From a virus, in the IMG/VR virus record IMGVR_UViG_3300011494_000001, positions 1 to 46,011 of that record: a stretch of 46,011 nt of DNA, one strand, 5' to 3'. Made by a program: the position numbers and the translations under genes. The notes beneath the pieces are model-generated. The model saw only the letters and a program-made list of their open reading frames with translations, had not been told where the DNA came from and did no database searches. This document shows, piece after piece, positions 28,661 through 43,074 of this stretch. Every line of letters starts with the position of its first letter. Within the stretch, counting starts at the first letter, position 1.

Positions 28661-29130
28661 TCATCGGAATCGACCCTGGCTGCACCGGCGCCATCGTGGT
28701 GATGACCGAGAGCCGCAACTACGTGGCTCACCTCAACATGCCGACCATCAAGGTAGGCACGAAGAGTCGCGTGAACGGCGCCGCGGTGGCTGCATTCCTG
28801 CGGGAGACGATCGGCGAGTTCACCGCTCACGCCTATCTTGAAGCGGTTGGCGCCATGCCGGGCCAGGGCGTTTCCTCGATGTTCACCTTTGGCCATGCCG
28901 CTGGCGTGGTCGAGGGCATCCTTCAAGGAGCGTGCATCCCTTACACATTGGTCACCCCGCAATCATGGAAGAAAAGAGCGGGCCTCATTGGGGTCGACAA
29001 GGATGCTGCACGCTCCCGCGCAATCCAGCTCTACCCGGACCTCCGCATTCTCGACCTGAAAGGGAAGGGGCAAGCGGTGGCCGACGCCATTTTGATCGCC
29101 CGGTTTGGGGCTAAAGGGGAGGCAGCCTAG
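28657..29130 (+). CDS. RuvC-like Holliday junction resolvase, 157 aa
   Basis: MIIGIDPGCTGA... (first acidic residue), ...AYLEAVGAMPGQG..., ...QAVADAILIARFG (C-terminal Asp). Confidence 0.8.
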   Translation: MIIGIDPGCTGAIVVMTESRNYVAHLNMPTIKVGTKSRVNGAAVAAFLRETIGEFTAHAYLEAVGAMPGQGVSSMFTFGHAAGVVEGILQGACIPYTLVTPQSWKKRAGLIGVDKDAARSRAIQLYPDLRILDLKGKGQAVADAILIARFGAKGEAA

Positions 29131-30266
29131 TGGCCGCACGCAAGCACGACGACGAGACAATCAAGGCCGCGCTGACTGGCCGTACTGTGGCCGAGGCTGC
29201 GCAGATCCTTGGGCTGCACGAGCGCAACGTCTACACCCACAAGGCCAGGCTGGCTCGGCAGGGATGGAGCCCGGAGCACGACATGGTGAAGACGGTGCCG
29301 GATGGCTTCCACCTCAAAGGCACGTCGACGCTCTACGGCAAGGACGGCGAGCAGAAACTGCAGTGGGTCAAGTCAAACATCGATCACGAGCGCCAAGCCG
29401 AACTGATGAAGGAGGCGGTCAAGGCGCTGGCCCTCGACATCAAGCCGGCCAAGGCGCTGCCGGCACCTCTGCACACCCTTGCGCACCTCCTCAACTGCTA
29501 CGTCATCACCGACTACCACCTCGGCATGAATGCCTGGGCGGAGGAGACGGGCGCAGCTTGGGATATGAATATCGCCGAGGACACGCTGGTCGGCTGGTTT
29601 GGTGCCGCCATCGCCCAGGCGCCTGACTCCCATACCGGCGTATTCGCACAGCTCGGGGATCTGTTGCATTGGGATGGTATCCAGGCGGTCACCCCGACAT
29701 CCGGCCACGTTCTCGACGCCGACACTCGGTTCCAGAAGCTGGTCCGCGTGGCAATCAGCGTCATCCGCCGCGTAACGGCCATGCTGCTGCAGAAGCACGA
29801 GCGCGTCGTTCTCCTGATGGCTGAGGGAAACCACGATCTGGCGTCGAGCGCATGGCTGCGCGAGCTGTTCGCCGCCTTGTATGCGGACGAGCCCCGCATC
29901 GAGGTCATCACCCGCCCGGACCCGTACTACTGCATCGAGCACGGCCGCACGTCGCTGTTCTTCCACCACGGCCACAAGAAGCGGATGGACTCCCTCGAGA
30001 CGGTATTCATCGCCAAGTTTCGCGAGGTCTTCGGCCGTACCAAGCACAGCTATGCGCACACCGGCCACCTGCATCACAACGTCCTGCGTGAGACGAACAC
30101 CATGCAGATCGAACAGCACCGCACCCTGGCCGCTCCAGACAGTCACGCGAGCCGCGGCGGGTGGATGAGCGGACGTGACGCCAAGGTCATCACCTACCAC
30201 GCCGAGCACGGCGAAGTGGGGCGAATCATCGTGTCAGCCGACATGCTCAAGGGGGAAGCAGCATGA
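29130..30266 (+). CDS. Metallophosphoesterase (calcineurin-like) with N-terminal HTH region, 378 aa
   Basis: GTG 29130 overlaps TAG, after AAGGGGAGG. HTH-like TVAEAAQILGLHERNVYTHKARL. MPE motifs DYHLG, GDLLHWDG, GNHD, HHGH, GHLHH. Confidence 0.7.
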   Translation: MAARKHDDETIKAALTGRTVAEAAQILGLHERNVYTHKARLARQGWSPEHDMVKTVPDGFHLKGTSTLYGKDGEQKLQWVKSNIDHERQAELMKEAVKALALDIKPAKALPAPLHTLAHLLNCYVITDYHLGMNAWAEETGAAWDMNIAEDTLVGWFGAAIAQAPDSHTGVFAQLGDLLHWDGIQAVTPTSGHVLDADTRFQKLVRVAISVIRRVTAMLLQKHERVVLLMAEGNHDLASSAWLRELFAALYADEPRIEVITRPDPYYCIEHGRTSLFFHHGHKKRMDSLETVFIAKFREVFGRTKHSYAHTGHLHHNVLRETNTMQIEQHRTLAAPDSHASRGGWMSGRDAKVITYHAEHGEVGRIIVSADMLKGEAA

Positions 30267-30808
30267 CCTATCGCAACGTGGTTTCCGCAGTAGTCCGCGC
30301 CCTGGCGTCGGAGGTGATCAACTCGGCGGGCGGCTGTGACTTCGAACCCAAAGTGCAAAAAGCGCGCATTCCTGGTGCCATCTGCGGAAAGGAAGCGGCA
30401 TTCCTGACTGACTGCTGGGTACATGGCCGCCTACATAAGGCGCTGCCGGTAGGCCTGTGGCTGGCTCTCGTGGCCAAGTACAGCACCCATCTGGAGCGCA
30501 AGCATGACGCGATGATGGCGCTTGCCGGGGCTGTGAAGTCTCCGGCGCCCGAGCGGTTCGTTCAGTGTGCCGTCGCCACATGGGCATTCCCGAAGCTGCC
30601 TGGTGCAGAAGGGAAGCGCAGCACGAGCGTATTGCCGGCCGCATGGTATGAGCTTAACCGCTGGGACGAAGATGGTCGCCCGCAAAAGACGCTGGAGCGG
30701 TGGCGTCGGGACATCCGCCGTGACTTGGAGCGGCAGGTGGACCAGGCGCTGGTAGAGGCTCACGAGATACTGGCTGCTGAGGGATTGGTGGCAGGCGAGG
30801 CGGCGTGA
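30263..30808 (+). CDS. Hypothetical protein, 181 aa; positional candidate for the late-gene regulator (lambda Q slot)
   Basis: Last ORF of the nin-like region, 20 nt upstream of a strong promoter. No Q-family motif recognised, so the function is positional inference only. Confidence 0.35.
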   Translation: MTYRNVVSAVVRALASEVINSAGGCDFEPKVQKARIPGAICGKEAAFLTDCWVHGRLHKALPVGLWLALVAKYSTHLERKHDAMMALAGAVKSPAPERFVQCAVATWAFPKLPGAEGKRSTSVLPAAWYELNRWDEDGRPQKTLERWRRDIRRDLERQVDQALVEAHEILAAEGLVAGEAA

Positions 30809-30828
30809 AATAAATTTGCGAAAGGGTG

Positions 30829-30856
30829 TTGCGTTAGTTACCTAACGCTGTATACT
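30829..30856 (+). promoter_or_regulatory. Strong sigma70-type promoter with palindromic operator in the spacer
   Basis: TTGCGT(30829-34)-16 nt-TATACT(30851-56). Perfect inverted repeat GCGTTAG-ttac-CTAACGC at 30831-30848. Confidence 0.65.
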
Positions 30857-30920
30857 AACACCCATGGAAGCGAAACAGCCTCCACTGCATCCCCGGCAGC
30901 TTCCGGGTAGAGATAAAGAC

Positions 30921-31151
30921 ATGAGCGAAGTATTTGCAACAATCAAGGTAGAGTTTGATGGCCGCACTGTAGAGGCTGACATGATTCTCACCGGCGGCGG
31001 CCTGACCAGCGACTGGCAGGCCCGGTCAAAGGAAGACAAAGCCTGGCTGGAGGGCTTGATCGGACTGAGCCGCACCATTAGCCGCGCCATGGATGCCGAA
31101 AACGGCACTGGCGAATACAAGGGCATCACCGTCAACCTGTCGGGGGTCTGA
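30921..31151 (+). CDS. Orphan small protein, 76 aa (alternative leaderless start ATG 30864 gives 95 aa)
   Basis: First ORF after the promoter. ATG 30864 lies 7 nt after the -10 hexamer. No family recognised. Confidence 0.5.
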   Translation: MSEVFATIKVEFDGRTVEADMILTGGGLTSDWQARSKEDKAWLEGLIGLSRTISRAMDAENGTGEYKGITVNLSGV

Positions 31152-31154
31152 AAA

Positions 31155-31700
31155 ATGGCTGCCGATACCCACACTCTGATAATGGCCGCGATGTACGCGG
31201 CCCTTGGCCAGCAAACAAAACTCAGCCGGTCCGGACACAGTATCGTTTTTGTAGAGCCTCAGTGCGGCCGGCATGACCTATCCGATGATGAGGGTCGCGC
31301 AACAGAGCAGGCGCGTAGTGCGGGGCTGAATATCGAGGCCATAACGCCTGAACAGGTCGAGGCATACCAGTCGTGGTACACCGCCATGTATGAGGCGCGC
31401 AGGATTGGCGAGGCGCGGATTCAGATCACTGCCCCGTACGTCATGCAGCACAGGAATGAGTTAGTTCCAGCAAATGGCGTTCGCCTGATCGATGGCTGGG
31501 GTTGCGTGGTTAGTTCGCGCGCTGTGCGTATGGAGATGTATTTAGACCCCGCCAGTAAGAATCGCATTGGCGAGCTAGGAGCGTACTGCCACCGCCCCGA
31601 TTACGCAAAAATTACGGATCGCGTAAAGAAAATTCTTGCGAAACATCCTGAGTTCGAAAGTGCACGCATTCAAGACAATAACCATAGAGGCCGCAAGTGA
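31155..31700 (+). CDS. Orphan protein, 181 aa
   Basis: Lower GC by eye. GGGGG 9 nt before ATG. No motif recognised. Confidence 0.6.
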   Translation: MAADTHTLIMAAMYAALGQQTKLSRSGHSIVFVEPQCGRHDLSDDEGRATEQARSAGLNIEAITPEQVEAYQSWYTAMYEARRIGEARIQITAPYVMQHRNELVPANGVRLIDGWGCVVSSRAVRMEMYLDPASKNRIGELGAYCHRPDYAKITDRVKKILAKHPEFESARIQDNNHRGRK

Positions 31701-32113
31701 ACGAGAAGGAATTCAAGCAGCTGATGCTAGAGGCTAAACGAATCGGCGGCGATTACGGCGCGGGCTTTCAGCGCGGATTGCGTCGTCACTACCACGGCGA
31801 GCAGTTCGGCACTGCGGCCGAGCATGAGACGTGGATGGCCTTGAGCGGACATCGCCAGGAACAAGGCGACGGCTACCGTGACGGGTTCGCTGGATTGAAA
31901 CCGAATGCAAGCTGGTCGCCGAAAACCACGGCTGAGCGTGTAGCTGAGCACGATGCCAGGCTGGTGAGCAATGGGGGGCGCAAGCTCAGCGGGATTCGTC
32001 TCACGCCAGATGCTGCTGCTGCGCTAGCTGATCTGGAGGCGGCCGGAGAGTCTGCCACCGCGGTGATAAACAGGCTGCTCACGGAAAGCCTAGCGTCATG
32101 CAAAGGTAGTTGA
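31697..32113 (+). CDS. Orphan protein, 138 aa, with C-terminal ribbon-helix-helix-like segment
   Basis: GTG 31697 overlaps the upstream TGA (GTGA). Gly/Tyr-rich N-terminal half. C-terminal LSGIRLTPDAAAALADLEAAGESATAVINRLL fits strand-helix-helix. Confidence 0.55.
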   Translation: MNEKEFKQLMLEAKRIGGDYGAGFQRGLRRHYHGEQFGTAAEHETWMALSGHRQEQGDGYRDGFAGLKPNASWSPKTTAERVAEHDARLVSNGGRKLSGIRLTPDAAAALADLEAAGESATAVINRLLTESLASCKGS

Positions 32114-32323
32114 CATGACTGATCCAGTGAGCCATTCTATGCCTATCTTGGTCATTTCACGCGTTGAGATGGCCGAGAGCATGTGAATGCCCGGGCTGAC
32201 GGGCTAAGCGGTACATAAGTCGAGTTGGAAAGCGCGCCAACACGCGGGGTTTCCGGCATAAACCAGACCGGCACCAGTCGACCCATGCAGGAGATCAGCG
32301 CCTGCCACCTGCACCAATTCAAG

Positions 32324-32349
32324 AAACCGACCGCTGTGTCGGTTTTTTT
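32324..32349 (+). terminator. Strong rho-independent terminator
   Basis: AAACCGAC-cgctgt-GTCGGTTT followed by further Ts (7-T run 32343-32349). Confidence 0.8.
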
Positions 32350-32648
32350 ATGCCGATTCGAAAGCCAATCCGCGCTTCAGTCGGCAATGAAATACCAGTT
32401 TCGGGCGCTAAAGGCCGTTTGAATGGATCGCCACCATGCGCCCAACCCAATCCCCGGCCTGCTTGCGATCGGCTACGCGCCACACGCAGCACACTGCGCG
32501 ACTCGGTAACGAGTATCGCCCCTAGGACGCTAGGGGAATCGGGCACTACACCACGAATTCCGGCCCCGCGCCTGCCTCCTAGCTCATAGGCGGATGGCAG
32601 CTGCGTGTGAGGCCGGACCAATCAACTGCCCCATGCGGGATAACCGAG

Positions 32649-32972
32649 ATGCCCAAGATGCCCGAGAAAAGTCCAGAAGTATGGGCTGCGGTCCTCGCAT
32701 GGCTGCACGCTATTGCGCCGAGCCTGTACGCGTTCTGTCTGTCCGTGACTATCGCCGTGCTGCGAGTCGTGTACGGGGGCGGAACTAAGCGGCAGATGGT
32801 GCTCGAGGGCGCTCTGTGTGGATTCGCCACGCTGACCCTGGTCCCGCTGCTCGAGTACTTCGGCCTCCCGCAGAGCATGGCTACGTTCGTCGGCGGTTCG
32901 GTTGGCTTCCTCGGAACAGAAAAGCTCCGTGACCTGGCTATCCGCTGGGGGGAGAAGAAGGCGAGCGCATGA
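32649..32972 (+). CDS. Lambda S-family holin with dual-start motif (MPKMPEK...), 107 aa
   Basis: Compare lambda S: MKMPEK..., ...YLRGRYNGG...TK, ...[22 protein letters not shown]. This ORF: MPKMPEK, VLRVVYGGGTKR, VGFLGTEKLRDLAIRWGEKKAS. Multiple TM segments. Confidence 0.85.
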   Translation: MPKMPEKSPEVWAAVLAWLHAIAPSLYAFCLSVTIAVLRVVYGGGTKRQMVLEGALCGFATLTLVPLLEYFGLPQSMATFVGGSVGFLGTEKLRDLAIRWGEKKASA

Positions 32973-33190
32973 AGCAGCAGCCTCCATGGATACACAGGTT
33001 CGATGACGGCCGCGGCGTCCGCAAGGTGTTCCTAGATGGGCAAGAGATCAAGATGGCTGTCTTCGTCGACCAGGAGCGCGGCATCGTCGATCGCTTCCGC
33101 CAGCCGCTGACCATTCGCCGCCGTGATGGGCAACTGATAACCGAGCGCCTACACGGTCGCGTGGAGGTTGTATGGCAAACGTCCAGCTAG
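32969..33190 (+). CDS. Hypothetical protein, 73 aa
   Basis: ATGA coupling to the holin stop; high GC3. Confidence 0.5.
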   Translation: MKQQPPWIHRFDDGRGVRKVFLDGQEIKMAVFVDQERGIVDRFRQPLTIRRRDGQLITERLHGRVEVVWQTSS

Positions 33191-33339
33191 TGGCCGTCGT
33201 CAAGATTCGCTGGTGGCTGCGCCTGTATCTCGCCGGAGTGGTTGCAGCCTCTCGCATCACTGGACTTGACCCGGATTGGCAAAAGGTCAGTCAGTGGATT
33301 CGGCGCGGCACAGTGATTCGCTTCAAGGCGGCACAGTGA
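33172..33339 (+). CDS. Small ORF, 55 aa (MANVQLVAVVKIRWWLRLYLAGVVAASRITG...)
   Basis: Hand translation. Hydrophobic N-terminal part. Below the track's cutoff. Confidence 0.35.
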   Translation: MANVQLVAVVKIRWWLRLYLAGVVAASRITGLDPDWQKVSQWIRRGTVIRFKAAQ

Positions 33340-33476
33340 AACGCCTCCACGCCACCTTGATCCTGATATGCCTCGCAGCCTGTGTCGCTGTGATGATCGG
33401 GAAAGAGGTGTGGATCTACTCACGCAAGAGGAAAGGCAATGACCGAAAGACCAAAGGTCGTCGAGTTCAAGCGTGA
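33336..33476 (+). CDS. Small ORF, 46 aa, signal/lipobox-like N-terminus (VKRLHATLILICLAAC...) and basic tail
   Basis: GTG 33336 overlaps the previous TGA (GTGA). In frame with track ORF 33276..33476. Confidence 0.3.
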   Translation: MKRLHATLILICLAACVAVMIGKEVWIYSRKRKGNDRKTKGRRVQA

Positions 33477-33693
33477 AGGATGGCGAGACGCTATCAAGAC
33501 ACTCCGCACCATTGCCGACCAGATGGAGTCGGGCGAAGTGCCGCGCTGTGACGTAGGCATTCTCGTGACGATAGGGCCGGACGGAGAGATAGACACATAC
33601 GGCATGGGTGGCAAAGGCGAAGACCTGGCGCTGCTCGGCCTGCTCCGGTGCGCTGAGCAAGTGATCATCGAGAGCACCCTATACCCGGAGTGA
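33439..33693 (+). CDS. Hypothetical protein, 84 aa
   Basis: High GC3. Ends 3 nt before the terS SD/ATG. Confidence 0.5.
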   Translation: MTERPKVVEFKREGWRDAIKTLRTIADQMESGEVPRCDVGILVTIGPDGEIDTYGMGGKGEDLALLGLLRCAEQVIIESTLYPE

Positions 33694-33696
33694 CCT

Positions 33697-34170
33697 ATGG
33701 CCCTGACTCAGAAGCAGGAAGCCTTCGCGCTTGCCTACTTTGAGACAGGCAATGCCAGCGAGGCATACCGAAGGGCGTACAACGCCGAGAACATGAAGCC
33801 GGAGAGCATCAATCGCAAAGCGAAGGAGATGCTTGATCACGGCAAGGTTACGGCAAGACTGGCCGAACTGCGCACAGCGGCCGCCAAGCGCAACCAGATC
33901 ACCGTGGATGACCTGCTGCGTGAGCTGGAAGAGGCCCGCGTTAAAGCGCTGAGCTGCGAGAACCCCCAGTCATCGGCAGCGGTGAGCGCGACGCTCGGCA
34001 AGGCCAAGTTGCTCGGACTGGATCGCCCAGACATTGGGCTTGATCTGGAGGCCAAGCGCCTGGCGAACGAGAAGCTGCGCCGCGAACTGGAAGACCCGAA
34101 TCAGGGCTTGCCTGAGCCGAAGCAAGTCATCATCGGGGTGGAAGATGCAAGCGACCCTGAAGCTGAATAG
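33697..34170 (+). CDS. terS: Terminase small subunit, 157 aa
   Basis: MALTQKQEAFALAYFETGNASEAYRRAYNAE... is the typical Terminase_2-type N-terminal HTH. Immediately upstream of terL. Confidence 0.8.
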   Translation: MALTQKQEAFALAYFETGNASEAYRRAYNAENMKPESINRKAKEMLDHGKVTARLAELRTAAAKRNQITVDDLLRELEEARVKALSCENPQSSAAVSATLGKAKLLGLDRPDIGLDLEAKRLANEKLRRELEDPNQGLPEPKQVIIGVEDASDPEAE

Positions 34171-42681: not shown

Positions 42682-43074
42682 ATGAAACCGAGTGACTTTT
42701 TCACCCGGGCCAAGGCGAACGAGGGGGAGCGCATGCCGCTCTCCCTGCCTGACGGTACGCCAACAGATGAGTGGCTGCAGATCCGCGGCGTGGACTCAGA
42801 TCATTTTCGCCATGCCCTCGATGAATTTCGGCGCAAATCTCTGAGCGCTGCTTCCCTAAAAGATCTGGAAGAAAAAGCCGAGAAGGCAGAGGCGGCAAGG
42901 CTGGAGCTAAATGCCGCGCTCGTGATCGGCTGGTCGTTCGATGCCGAGTTCTCAGAGGCTGCGCTTCTGGAGTTCCTGCGCGAATCCCCCTACATCGCGG
43001 CAGAGGTGGACCGGTTCGCGAGTGACCGCCGCCGTTTTTTTGGGAAACGCTCGACGGGCTCGCCGAAGGACTGA
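42682..43074 (+). CDS. Tail assembly chaperone (gpG-like), 130 aa
   Basis: Position between the tube and tape measure genes. Slippery run near the 3' end. Paralogous to 44044..44394. Confidence 0.7.
   Translation: MKPSDFFTRAKANEGERMPLSLPDGTPTDEWLQIRGVDSDHFRHALDEFRRKSLSAASLKDLEEKAEKAEAARLELNAALVIGWSFDAEFSEAALLEFLRESPYIAAEVDRFASDRRRFFGKRSTGSPKD

Follow-up and report, generated by a model that had tools for sequence, protein, structure and literature searches.

Related systems

New inhibitors of bacterial immunity are found chiefly by way of conserved regulators, of which Aca1 is an example. In the acrIF1-aca1 operon of Pseudomonas phage JBD30, which is located in a Mu-like late region, an inverted-repeat operator lies between or over the −35 and −10 elements, and small orphan cargo is followed by a small DNA-binding autorepressor. 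The JBD30 Aca1 operator is AGGCACAATGTGCCT (PMC8633003). Aca regulators of the ribbon-helix-helix (RHH) type, Acr proteins with built-in RHH or helix-turn-helix (HTH) modules, and binding of Aca proteins to structured 5'UTR motifs have been reported (PMC13551039). The Aca14 operons end in an RHH instead of an HTH regulator and have an AT-rich repeat that overlaps the core promoter at the −10 (PMC13551039, 2026). AcrIIA1, AcrIIA15, AcrIF24, AcrIF25, and AcrIE10 combine a DNA-binding autoregulatory module and a second domain in one polypeptide; the Cas7f-binding domain of AcrIF25 is C-terminal, and a homolog has its RHH module replaced by an HTH. In the late control region of lambda, the regulator gene is immediately upstream of a promoter with a binding-site-like spacer element, the transcript starts with a −10-like sequence, and a non-coding leader of ~200 nt runs to an intrinsic terminator shortly before the lysis genes. 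Q also controls the stx genes, which follow tR'.

Overall organization of the interval

The window is the whole stretch of viral DNA analysed here, 46,011 nt in length (IMG/VR record IMGVR_UViG_3300011494_000001). Its interval 30811-32349 is composed of two adjacent regulatory units, not one. Unit A (30829-32113) is probably an anti-defence operon of the acr-aca type, paired with Unit B (32110-32349) as a late control region. Anatomy, conservation, associations, and predicted folds were established. The preliminary description, made from the window alone, had proposed a self-contained, repressor-gated unit with anti-CRISPR grammar and a terminal autorepressor. Comparison with sister phages, with the ORF3 family, and with their operators backs that proposal, and the sequence features named in it are real. 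The promoter strength, the leaderless ORF1, and the rank and ownership of the terminator had to be revised. The lower GC content noticed earlier by eye amounts to 0.53-0.59 across 30750-31800 versus 0.62-0.65 in the flanks. The features of Unit A and of its left border are as follows.

30263-30808, + strand: "Qc", a 181-aa protein of phrog_3412 (function unknown; PHROG E=3.9e-70), left flank of the slot
30809-30828, + strand: left cassette junction AATAAATTTGCGAAAGGGTG, common to the Aca1-type cassettes of sister phages
30829-30856, + strand: cassette promoter, −35 TTGCGT (30829-30834), 16-nt spacer, −10 TATACT (30851-30856), read directly
30831-30848, no strand assigned: putative operator, a perfect palindrome (GCGTTAG-ttac-CTAACGC) that fills the spacer and extends into the −35
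30863-30920, + strand: structured 5'UTR of ~57 nt, with CATG conserved where transcription is expected to start
30865-30884, + strand: 5'UTR hairpin 1
30892-30907, + strand: 5'UTR hairpin 2, CCCGG-cagctt-CCGGG
30910-30913, + strand: weak Shine-Dalgarno sequence GAGA
30921-31151, + strand: ORF1, 76 aa, orphan, candidate anti-defence (Acr-like) cargo
31155-31700, + strand: ORF2, 181 aa, orphan alpha/beta protein, candidate anti-defence cargo
31697-32113, + strand: ORF3, 138 aa, predicted autorepressor, possibly also effector
31697-31906, + strand: conserved helical N-domain of ORF3 (residues 1-70), followed by a linker
31979-32110, + strand: C-terminal RHH of ORF3 (residues ~95-138; AlphaFold2 and alignment)

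The three ORFs, with the alternative ORF1 start at 30864 and the GTGA overlap between ORF2 and ORF3, are located where they had been described.

Promoter, operator, and leader of Unit A

The cassette promoter agrees with the consensus at 8 of 12 positions (the −35 at 3 of 6), and a consensus promoter scan of the window did not list it. Its positions and 16-nt spacer had been given correctly; its designation as near-consensus and strong is not borne out. Homologous cassettes have at the same positions TTGCGT-16-TATAAT (L144), TTGACG-17-TATAAT (L143), TTGACC-17-TATAAT (L155), TTGACA-17-TAATCT (L146), and TTGACA-17-TATATT (L148).

The inverted repeat at 30831-30848 is perfect, as had been read. 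Its pattern, with three or fewer mismatches, is expected about twice in shuffled sequences and was found once in the window. The palindrome alone is thus not beyond chance, and it gains significance only from the comparison with related cassettes. GTTAG-N4-CTAAC is kept in L106 and L144, both of which have the same RHH type as ORF3 of the window. Cassettes with a different ORF3-family tail have another repeat, namely TTGTTTGT(A/G)TTGACAA in L146, L148, L150, and L152, and TG(A/G)CCATATAAT in L143 and L155. The inverted repeat lies over the core promoter as in acr-aca operons, and the homologous cassettes have equivalent repeats. The motif changes with the type of the DNA-binding tail, which indirectly supports the putative operator role. 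It differs from the GGCAC-N3-GTGCC of the JBD30 Aca1 operator. The 30263 product had also been put forward as a possible binder of the palindrome; nothing suggests such binding.

The 5'UTR folds with a dG of −15.8, and its nucleotides are conserved in L143, L144, L106, and L154, even with a different first gene. The pairing of hairpin 2 is kept via double changes: CCCGA/TCGGG in L146, CCAAT/ATTGG in L151, TCAGG/CCTGA in L152, and CTCGG/CCGAG in L155. Among the relatives, the ATG that precedes the first gene is in another reading frame than that gene in L143, L148, and L152, and leads into a stop in L151 and L155. Together with the conservation of the nucleotides there as a 5'UTR, this makes the 95-aa leaderless form of ORF1 from 30864, which had been suggested as an alternative, unlikely. 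No conserved RNA motif is reported for the Aca14 operons, whereas the ORF3 family has this covarying hairpin.

ORF1 and ORF2 are orphan cargo

ORF1 is found in only 3 clusters among 5.8 billion proteins. It has no match in Pfam, PHROG, NCBIfam, PADLOC, or PDB, nor among 50,697 phage records, and shares 51% identity with the leading gene of the L104 Aca1 operon. ORF2 is found in only 10 clusters; Foldseek matched its AlphaFold2 model (pLDDT 91) to nothing in PDB or BFVD at E<0.01. Homologs of ORF2 are located in four differently composed operons having the same leader (L143, L106, L155, and L154). The homolog in L155 lies directly downstream of an AcrIE4/AcrF31-like gene, whose AcrF31 match of 26.2 is just below the Pfam cutoff of 27. 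L154 has no ORF3-like gene on its 5-kb contig, so regulation there may differ. Another homolog is near a HipA gene. Sequence, PADLOC, and structure searches revealed no relative of known function, by sequence or fold, for either protein, and in having no known Acr relatives the cargo differs from that of JBD30. From their setting we infer that ORF1 and ORF2 are candidate inhibitors of host defence.

ORF3 belongs to a family with interchangeable tails

The AlphaFold2 model of ORF3 (pLDDT 91) has a strand at residues 100-102 and helices at 104-115 and 120-137, in keeping with the strand-helix-helix segment noticed earlier at its end. The tail of ORF3 itself matched no RHH model of Pfam; some relatives weakly match the RHH families TacA1, NikA-like, and CopG. 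The tails swap within the family, which has several RHH types, an Aca1-like HTH (P0043), and XRE HTHs, comparable to the exchange of RHH for HTH seen with AcrIF25. A profile of the N-domain retrieved 701 cluster representatives, and no annotation was found for this family. Many of these proteins are stand-alone without a DNA-binding tail, and others are fused to other unknown regions; therefore, the family is not simply "a regulator".

ORF3 had no PDB sequence match at E<=10 and no Foldseek match. The PDB search found no Aca1 chain, and the 138-aa ORF3, with its new N-domain and RHH tail, is distinct from the ~79-aa HTH proteins of the Aca1 family. It is likewise distinct from AcrIF25 (PDB 8JDI/8JDH), and it shares no sequence similarity with any of the five two-domain Acr proteins in PDB. 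Its RHH is at the C-terminus, where AcrIF25 has the Cas7f-binding domain, and its N-domain, unlike the second domain of the bifunctional Acr proteins, has no known inhibitory activity. For Aca14 of Pasteurella multocida, whose operons were compared with the window by their published description, no conserved N-domain of ~70 aa is described.

Genes of the ORF3 family invariably stand last or near-last in small operons, and the remaining genes of these operons are mutually unrelated. Among 22 neighbouring cargo proteins compared, only ORF1 of the window and its L104 homolog are related. In L153, the operon opens with a protein of the AcrIC5 family (74.7 bits, cutoff 27) and closes with an ORF3-family gene, the L155 operon has the AcrF31/AcrIE4-like gene beside the ORF2 homolog, and one further operon holds a Lar-like anti-restriction gene. 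As in acr-aca operons, the last gene encodes a small protein predicted to bind DNA (the ORF3 model; the RHH/HTH tails of relatives), and the regulator family is found near known acr genes (L153, L155, and AcrIE4-Aca1 in the slot). These sequence associations suggest that the ORF3 family behaves like an Aca, as a terminal gene beside known or likely acr genes.

Unit A occupies an exchangeable slot behind a Q-like gene

The Qc ORF stops at 30808, and the cassette promoter follows 20 nt further on. Qc has no Pfam match at E<=0.1 and no NCBIfam match, its family profile retrieves nothing from PDB at E<=10, and neither the Pfam nor the PDB search links it detectably to the Q-lambda, Q21, or Q82 families. 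From the architecture of its locus, Qc is a candidate Q-like antiterminator of late genes. We fetched 141 loci related to Qc and counted the 138 with a complete Qc gene. In 92 of these, the late-promoter-like element of Unit B is 90 nt or less from the Qc stop; 27 have 200-1400 nt of varied cargo between the two. By this comparison, the gap is a hot spot for cargo.

A blastn search with 30800-30925 aligned L104 (96.9%) and L063, L103, and L105 (90.6%) over 32 nt, and L144 and L106 (93%) over 109-126 nt. Sister phages have Aca1 operons in the same slot, with the same left and right junctions as in the window. These operons consist of a promoter with an inverted repeat in its spacer, one or two small acidic ORFs, and a terminal 73-77-aa protein, which is Aca1 (PDB 7c0g/7fa3, E=2.5e-29) and about 70% identical to that of JBD30 over aligned residues. 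The inverted repeat AGGAACAGTGTTCC of the sister slot is similar to the operator of Aca1 in JBD30. In L063/L107, the operon is headed by AcrIE4 (PDB 7vzm, E=3e-19), and the ORF1 homolog noted above sits in a sister Aca1 operon as well. ORF3 and the Aca1 proteins of the slot share the C-terminal residues ASCKGS/ASCKDG, whose codons belong to the common right junction, as does the late −35. In L143, another phage, the cassette adjoins xis/int, and in L144 its neighbours are another late element and a second copy, in truncated form, of the 3' end of Qc. Judging from these placements, the cassette moves as a unit.

The slot had been equated with that of stx, which lies between PR'/tR' and the lysis genes. 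The cassette sits instead after the Q-like gene and upstream of the late promoter and, unlike stx-type cargo, has its own promoter. The location also differs from that of the JBD30 operon: the cassette sits in a lambdoid-type phage, with a Q-like gene to its left and the late promoter to its right.

Unit B resembles a late control region

The features of Unit B are as follows.

32110-32149, + strand: late-promoter-like element, −35 TTGACA (32110-32115), overlapping the ORF3 stop
32120-32134, + strand: direct repeat TGATCCA-g-TGAGCCA of the late element, 8-bp period
32133-32138, + strand: −10-like CATTCT of the late element
32144-32149, + strand: −10-like initial transcribed motif TATCTT
32147-32177, + strand: late-leader hairpin CTTGGTCATTTCA-cgcgt-TGAGATGGCCGAG, dG −17 to −19
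32178-32323, + strand: late leader from hairpin to terminator, no convincing ORF
32324-32349, + strand: intrinsic terminator, 8-bp stem AAACCGAC/GTCGGTTT, 6-nt loop, 7 T, listed by the scan, dG −12.6

The architecture of the late element is alike in 83 loci, with direct repeats in the spacer and a conserved [CT]ATC[CT]T at about +1 to +6, and the words repeated with the 8-bp period vary (TGAGCCA, TGGCAG, GTGAGA, TGATAG, TGTCGC). The 69 distinct variants of the hairpin have a mean dG of −11.3 and a mean z of −2.2; their stem sequences differ while the YGCGYGT loop is conserved. The late leader is 97.9-99.3% identical over 141 nt in L144, L115, and L106 and 95.7% identical over 115 nt in L067, and has no Rfam match even at E<=1. 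In most loci of the family, a terminator is located 40-70 nt after the hairpin.

The terminator had been described as a hairpin with seven T, the strongest of the window, at the end of the three-gene unit. The hairpin and T-run are present, but the first rank is not clear, with comparable T-run hairpins at 43035 (+) and 24423 (−). The terminator segment is 94-100% identical in the cassette-free loci L068, L078, L080, L093, L070, and L067, and in L115, which has HNH cargo. As terminator and leader are conserved without the cassette, and the promoter-like element intervenes between the genes and the terminator, we assign the terminator to the late leader (tR'-like). The scan found no other terminator between the cassette promoter and 32324, so transcripts of the cassette probably end at 32324-32349 too. 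The holin gene (PF05106) starts at 32649, 300 nt further on, as had been noted.

Unit B is laid out as in lambda, with the candidate regulator gene directly upstream of promoter, short leader, and terminator ahead of lysis and late genes in the same 92 of 138 loci. Unlike in lambda, the repeats are direct with the 8-bp period, the start site is followed by a conserved hairpin, and the candidate regulator has no detectable similarity to Q-lambda, Q21, or Q82.

Alternative readings

In an unlikely reading, the prophage expresses the cassette as a defence, superinfection-exclusion, or toxin-antitoxin module, with ORF3 as RHH antitoxin and autorepressor and ORF1 and/or ORF2 as toxin or lysogen-protecting effector. 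Type II toxin-antitoxin systems typically have RHH proteins with palindromic operators and 4-nt overlaps between genes, ORF3 relatives weakly match the antitoxin-type RHH families TacA1 and CopG_antitoxin, and a conserved N-domain with a swappable RHH/HTH tail recalls the layout of the HicB and MqsA antitoxins. The ORF2 homolog near HipA, the GC content below that of the flanks, and the location in accessory slots fit this reading as well. However, the N-domain is strongly conserved while the genes preceding ORF3-family members share no relationship from one operon to the next, which is the opposite of what a co-evolving toxin/antitoxin pair would give. No cognate toxin family is consistently paired with the regulator among the 22 cargo proteins, there is no PADLOC match, and the known genes of these operons and of the slot are anti-defence ones (AcrIC5, AcrIE4, AcrF31-like, Lar-like, and Aca1). 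We consider it quite improbable that the cassette is an autoregulated accessory operon with another purpose, such as host takeover or lysogenic conversion, in which the N-domain of ORF3 is the main actor, e.g. as a binder of a host factor or of the RNA of the 5'UTR, and ORF1 and ORF2 are unrelated to immunity. All informative associations found point to anti-defence loci, and fast-varying small acidic cargo before a conserved regulator is a signature for discovery of Acr genes. Such a purpose would nonetheless agree with the size of the N-domain family, its many stand-alone or otherwise fused members, and its lack of annotation, with 5'UTR hairpins conserved family-wide through compensatory changes, and with nothing directly tying ORF1 or ORF2 to a defence system.

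The preliminary description had offered 30829-30856 as the late promoter of the phage, with ORF1-3 as protein-coding leader and 32324-32349 as target of antitermination. The promoter does lie 20 nt past the gene in the Q position, and its transcripts probably reach 32324. Yet this promoter and the three genes are missing from almost all related phages, and it is a different element, at 32110-32180 in the window with direct repeats and leader hairpin, that adjoins the Q-like gene in the 92 loci. The cassette is also found beside an integrase, far from late genes, and its promoter scaffold is common to Aca1 operons. The comparison largely refutes this alternative, which we regard as highly improbable.

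Proposed mechanism

The acr-aca-type reading of Unit A implies a mobile, self-regulated cassette that would have been inserted into a Pseudomonas phage, at a recombination hot spot that separates the Q-like gene from its late promoter. Its sigma-70 promoter would fire early, independently of late-gene control, and the mRNA would have the structured 57-nt leader followed by ORF1 (76 aa), ORF2 (181 aa), and ORF3. ORF3 is predicted to dimerize via its C-terminal RHH and to target the 18-bp palindrome between −35 and −10; once enough ORF3 has accumulated, the cassette promoter would be shut down. Aca1, Aca2, and the RHH protein Aca14 repress anti-CRISPR operons in the same mode. The cargo proteins ORF1 and ORF2 would most likely inhibit a host immune system, CRISPR-Cas being the leading candidate, and the N-domain of ORF3 could either act as one more effector or interact with the conserved 5'UTR hairpins. 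In Unit B, the direct repeats in the promoter spacer are a likely binding site for the upstream 181-aa protein. The transcript would start with the −10-like element and hairpin and continue through a ~200-nt leader to the terminator, resembling PR'-qut-tR' of lambda, and antitermination there is likewise inferred.

A wider reading is tentative, and we hold it with more doubt than confidence. It takes the ~70-aa N-domain (GYQRGLRRHYHG...GYRDGFAG) as defining a new and widespread class of anti-defence proteins of phages, either stand-alone or combined with interchangeable RHH/HTH autorepressor modules, to which the covarying 5'UTR hairpin may add control at the RNA level. ORF1 and ORF2 would then be two new families of immune inhibitors, and the 181-aa Qc protein would found a fourth, Pseudomonas-specific family of Q-type late antiterminators.

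The locus adds a regulator family annotated nowhere, with ~700 cluster representatives and members beside AcrIC5- and AcrIE4-like genes. It flags ORF1 and ORF2 as candidates that are directly testable in Pseudomonas/Stutzerimonas hosts equipped with type I CRISPR-Cas or another defence. The slot between the conserved late-regulator gene and its promoter is mapped as a hot spot for cassette exchange by recombination, and scanning it over Pseudomonas prophages would be a cheap harvest of further candidates. The late-control element provides a concrete, testable model for the switch-on of late genes in a large group of temperate Pseudomonas phages. This group includes relatives of D3, F10, and JBD44, in which the Qc gene is still annotated as hypothetical.

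Two adjacent units upstream of the holin gene

The interval between the 181-aa gene Qc (30263-30808, phrog_3412) and the holin gene holds two units, a three-gene cassette at 30829-32113 and a late-promoter-like unit at 32110-32349. Their features are:

30829-30834 and 30851-30856, + strand: cassette promoter, TTGCGT and TATACT with a 16-nt gap
30831-30848: perfect inverted repeat GCGTTAG-ttac-CTAACGC (the palindrome)
30863-30920: 5'UTR with two hairpins
30892-30907: hairpin 2, 2-5 nt ahead of the SD
30921-31151: ORF1
31155-31700: ORF2
31697-32113: ORF3
32110-32115: late -35 TTGACA, overlapping the ORF3 stop
32120-32134: direct repeat TGATCCA-g-TGAGCCA
32147-32177: late hairpin, dG about -17 to -19
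32324-32349: terminator, a hairpin with a 7-T run

The preliminary description had taken 30811-32349 as a single operator-gated unit. Most of its anatomy is real: the promoter hexamers and the palindrome are read directly, all three ORFs are present, ORF2 and ORF3 join in a GTGA overlap, the 7-T terminator is in place, the holin gene (PF05106, E=1e-30) begins 300 nt past it, and GC is 0.53-0.59 over the cassette versus 0.62-0.65 in the flanks. "Near-consensus" and "strong" are too much for a promoter that agrees with the consensus at 8 of 12 positions and was not listed by a consensus scan, and the "strongest terminator of the window" has a dG of -12.6, with peers at 43035 (+) and 24423 (-). 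About two palindromes of such kind with up to three mismatches are expected by chance in the window, across which no second copy was found. The meaning of these features comes from comparison with relatives, not from within-window statistics.

The three proteins are true orphans. None of them matched Pfam, PHROGs, NCBIfam or PADLOC, PDB sequence searches gave nothing meaningful, and tblastn against 50,697 phage records returned zero matches. Among 5.8 billion clustered proteins, ORF1, ORF2, and ORF3 have 3, 10, and 51 clusters, respectively, none of which is named or has a Pfam domain. The AlphaFold2 models of ORF2 and ORF3 are confident (pLDDT 91 for both), and Foldseek at E<0.001 found no match for ORF3 in PDB or for ORF2 in PDB and BFVD. 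In the ORF3 model, four helices form the N-domain, a linker helix comes next, and the C-terminus has a strand (residues 100-102) and then two helices (104-115 and 120-137), the second of them preceded by a G-E-S turn. The strand and two helices show the pattern of the ribbon-helix-helix (RHH) suspected at this C-terminus. Rfam returned nothing for the whole window at the gathering threshold or for 30780-32700 at E<=1, and no tRNAs were found.

The late element and its terminator

At the DNA level, the sole cultured relative is Pseudomonas phage PS-1, in which a Qc homolog (phrog_3412) is followed by an HNH endonuclease gene as differing cargo and then by a non-coding stretch common with the window. 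We inspected 141 fetched loci encoding Qc homologs. In most of them, a conserved non-coding architecture lies directly 3' of the Qc stop. It begins with a -35 hexamer, TTGCA(A/T) or a stop-overlapping TTGAC(A/G), and in the spacer a repeat word stands twice in direct orientation with a period of 8 bp (TGAGCCA, TGGCAG, GTGAGA, TGATAG, or TGTCGC by subgroup). Next come a -10-like hexamer, the conserved motif [CT]ATC[CT]T at about +1 to +6, and a hairpin whose YGCGYGT loop is conserved; an intrinsic terminator usually lies 40-70 nt past the hairpin. The 69 distinct hairpin variants, whose loops differ in length, have very different stem sequences and, by per-sequence folding, a mean dG of -11.3 and a mean z of -2.2.

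Among the 138 loci with complete Qc, the late element is within 90 nt of the Qc stop in 92, and in 27 it is separated from that stop by 200-1400 nt of varied cargo; the strict pattern was unmatched in the other 19. In the window, the element lies away from Qc at 32110-32180. The leader and terminator segments of the window are 94-100% identical in seven cassette-free loci (L068, L078, L080, L093, L070, L067, and L115). Hence, the terminator, which had been assigned to the three-gene unit, is part of the late-promoter-like unit. Cassette transcripts probably end at 32324-32349 too, as there is no other terminator between.

The late unit resembles the PR'-qut-6S-tR' arrangement of lambda, and together with Qc it looks like a Q/PR'/qut/tR' late switch. 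The 181-aa protein would bind the direct repeats and let RNA polymerase pass the terminator into the lysis and structural genes. It has no similarity to known Q families. The gene is present in 62 phage records; nearly all, among them D3 (orf84), JBD44, PMG1, and MD8, call the product hypothetical and one names it an anti-termination regulator. The record of phage F10, which also has the gene, is unannotated.

Exchange of cargo between Qc and the late element

Short operons occupy the slot between Qc and the late element in six related loci (L063, L103, L105, L107, L104, and L101). The right junction (ATGCAAAG.T.GTTGACA) is common to all six and the window, and the left junction (TGAAATAAATTTGCG...GTTG) to the window and five of the six, L101 being the exception. 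In each operon, the promoter spacer contains an inverted repeat, one or two small acidic ORFs come next, and the last gene encodes an HTH protein of 73-77 aa. This protein is the anti-CRISPR-associated regulator (Aca) Aca1 (PDB 7c0g/7fa3, E=2.5e-29), and the repeat, AGGAACAGTGTTCC, closely resembles the operator of Aca1 in JBD30, AGGCACAATGTGCCT (PMC8633003). The identifiable genes in these operons are anti-CRISPR (Acr) genes; the first gene of L063 and L107 is AcrIE4 (PDB 7vzm, AcrIE4-F7, E=3e-19). PDB searches gave no matches for two other cargo proteins, of 85 aa in L103 and 79 aa in L101. The Aca1 operon of L104 opens with a gene 51% identical to ORF1 of the window.

Although unrelated, ORF3 and the sister Aca1 proteins have a C-terminal tail in common (ASCKGS or ASCKDG). 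This tail is encoded by the common right junction (32096-32113 in the window; also L063, L103, L104, and L107), which includes the late -35 TTGACA, and it marks cassette exchange via recombination within the flanks. Locus L144 (2635-5370; ENA k141_36781) is a tandem. Qc and a late element make up its first part; the second part opens with the Qc 3' half again, as a truncated copy, continues with the ORF1-ORF2-ORF3 cassette, and closes with another late element, its leader, and the terminator. The tandem looks like a recombination intermediate showing cassette acquisition.

An HNH endonuclease gene, which has a short leader of its own, often fills the slot (PS-1, i.e. L001, 5546-6230; L073, L081, L086, L094, L096, and others), and other loci have a small Cys-rich ORF there; several kinds of cargo thus use the hot spot. 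The comparison of the slot with that of stx, made in the preliminary description, does not hold.

The cassette forms an independent unit. A cassette like ORF1-ORF2-ORF3, under the promoter TTGACG-17-TATAAT, adjoins xis/int in L143, which belongs to another phage. Four operons of differing composition that have their leader in common contain an ORF2 homolog. It is accompanied by an ORF1 homolog in L143, by a first gene of another kind in L106, and by two further genes in L155; the fourth operon is that of L154.

ORF3 family

The conserved part of the ORF3 family is the N-domain, residues 1-70 (alignment A1), with invariant G23, G27, L28, R29, R30, G34, H43, G59, Y60, R61, and G63. The DNA-binding tail at the C-terminus can be exchanged: it comes as an RHH of at least three types, as an Aca1-like HTH in cluster representative P0043, and as an XRE-type HTH in L169 and L172. 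The operator motif varies along with the tail type.

Operator motifs by RHH tail type
Type I (window, L106, L144): GTTAG-N4-CTAAC
Type II (L143, L155): TG(A/G)CCATATAAT
Type III (L146, L148, L150, L152): TTGTTTGT(A/G)TTGACAA

In every context examined, the ORF3-family gene is last or near-last of a short operon whose remaining genes are mutually unrelated. Several of these operons include recognised anti-defence genes. An AcrIC5-family protein (74.7 bits; cutoff 27) is encoded first in the L153 operon, and L150 carries a Lar-like anti-restriction gene. In L155, the gene directly upstream of the ORF2 homolog is 36% identical to AcrIE4, and its N-terminus scores 26.2 bits against AcrF31, just below the cutoff of 27. 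The family profile gathered 701 cluster representatives, none with a Pfam domain. As many of them are stand-alone proteins of 70-100 aa or fusions to unknown regions, the N-domain has its own function. The family resembles an Aca in its behaviour, and its role may go further.

The N-domain (GYQRGLRRHYHG...GYRDGFAG), about 70 aa, is widespread and unannotated, and in some cases forms the C-terminal part of a larger protein (P0065-P0211, e.g. P0084, P0078, P0092, P0122, and P0144). More unannotated cargo stands directly 5' of ORF3-family genes on IMG/VR contigs: L159 2615-3001, L160 2196-2633, and L168 2419-2961. The latter two are one family, and all three are further anti-defence candidates.

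5'UTR and start of ORF1

A leaderless 95-aa ORF1 from ATG 30864 had been considered and is rejected on relatives. The corresponding ATG and the first gene are in different frames in L143, L148, and L152, and in L151 and L155 reading from that ATG meets a stop. ORF1 hence has 76 aa from 30921. The nucleotides around the upstream ATG are kept in relatives despite the loss of frame. Hairpin 2 retains five pairs across the family via double substitutions (CCCGG/CCGGG, CCCGA/TCGGG, CCAAT/ATTGG, TCAGG/CCTGA, and CTCGG/CCGAG), and its loop is often cggaa.

Aca2 and Aca1 have recently been described to bind structured 5'UTR motifs (PMC13551039). That the ORF3 N-domain binds the conserved hairpin is speculation; L154 has the same leader and no visible ORF3-like gene, and the many stand-alone N-domain proteins also speak against this pairing.

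Proposed mechanism and comparison with known systems

We propose a model built on the anatomy of the cassette, its conservation, its association with Aca1/Acr loci, the covariation of tail and operator, and the predicted RHH. The cassette promoter would fire early, and ORF3 dimers would then bind the palindrome and repress it. ORF1 and ORF2, possibly with the N-domain, would neutralise a host defence system, for which CRISPR-Cas is the leading candidate in view of the genes found together with them. The 5'UTR hairpins may add post-transcriptional control. The central intuition of the preliminary description, a regulated anti-defence-type unit, is judged right.

We weighed three other readings. 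A toxin-antitoxin or defence module would fit the RHH and the gene overlap, but the unrelated cargo beside a conserved N-domain and the lack of PADLOC matches argue against it, and we consider it unlikely. An accessory operon unconnected with immunity is only slightly less probable than that. The earlier alternative that 30829-30856 is the late promoter with a coding leader is contradicted by the comparative data and is very improbable.

The closest analogy to ORF3 is the bifunctional Acr class (AcrIIA1, AcrIF24, and AcrIF25), and a swap between RHH and HTH modules has been reported for AcrIF25 (PMC13551039). PDB sequence search and Foldseek found no sequence or fold similarity between ORF3 and these proteins. 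ORF3 as AcrIF25 or as Aca1 is ruled out on sequence. The grammar is already known from acr-aca operons, the RHH protein Aca14, and bifunctional Acrs, so the finding is not categorically new. What appears new is an unannotated regulator family of about 700 representatives with a conserved N-domain and interchangeable RHH/HTH tails, its covarying 5'UTR hairpin, the two orphan cargo families ORF1 and ORF2, and the interval separating a Q-like gene from its promoter as a defined hot spot.

Flanking regions

Between the holin (32649-32972) and small terminase (33697-34170) genes, 32972-33697 has only small ORFs of 73, 55, and 84 aa. No endolysin gene is evident beside the holin gene, and another part of the genome may encode the lysin. 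Just 5' of the holin gene, a second conserved non-coding element (32559-32624) is found in about 49 related loci. It is a long imperfect hairpin (dG -36), almost invariant with one compensatory pair (CG to TA), and has no T-run and no Rfam match. The gene ahead of Qc (29130-30266) encodes a 378-aa protein of phrog_704, "DNA repair exonuclease" (E=5.6e-136), with a weak N-terminal HTH (HTH_28, E=6.8e-5), a combination we regard as unusual.
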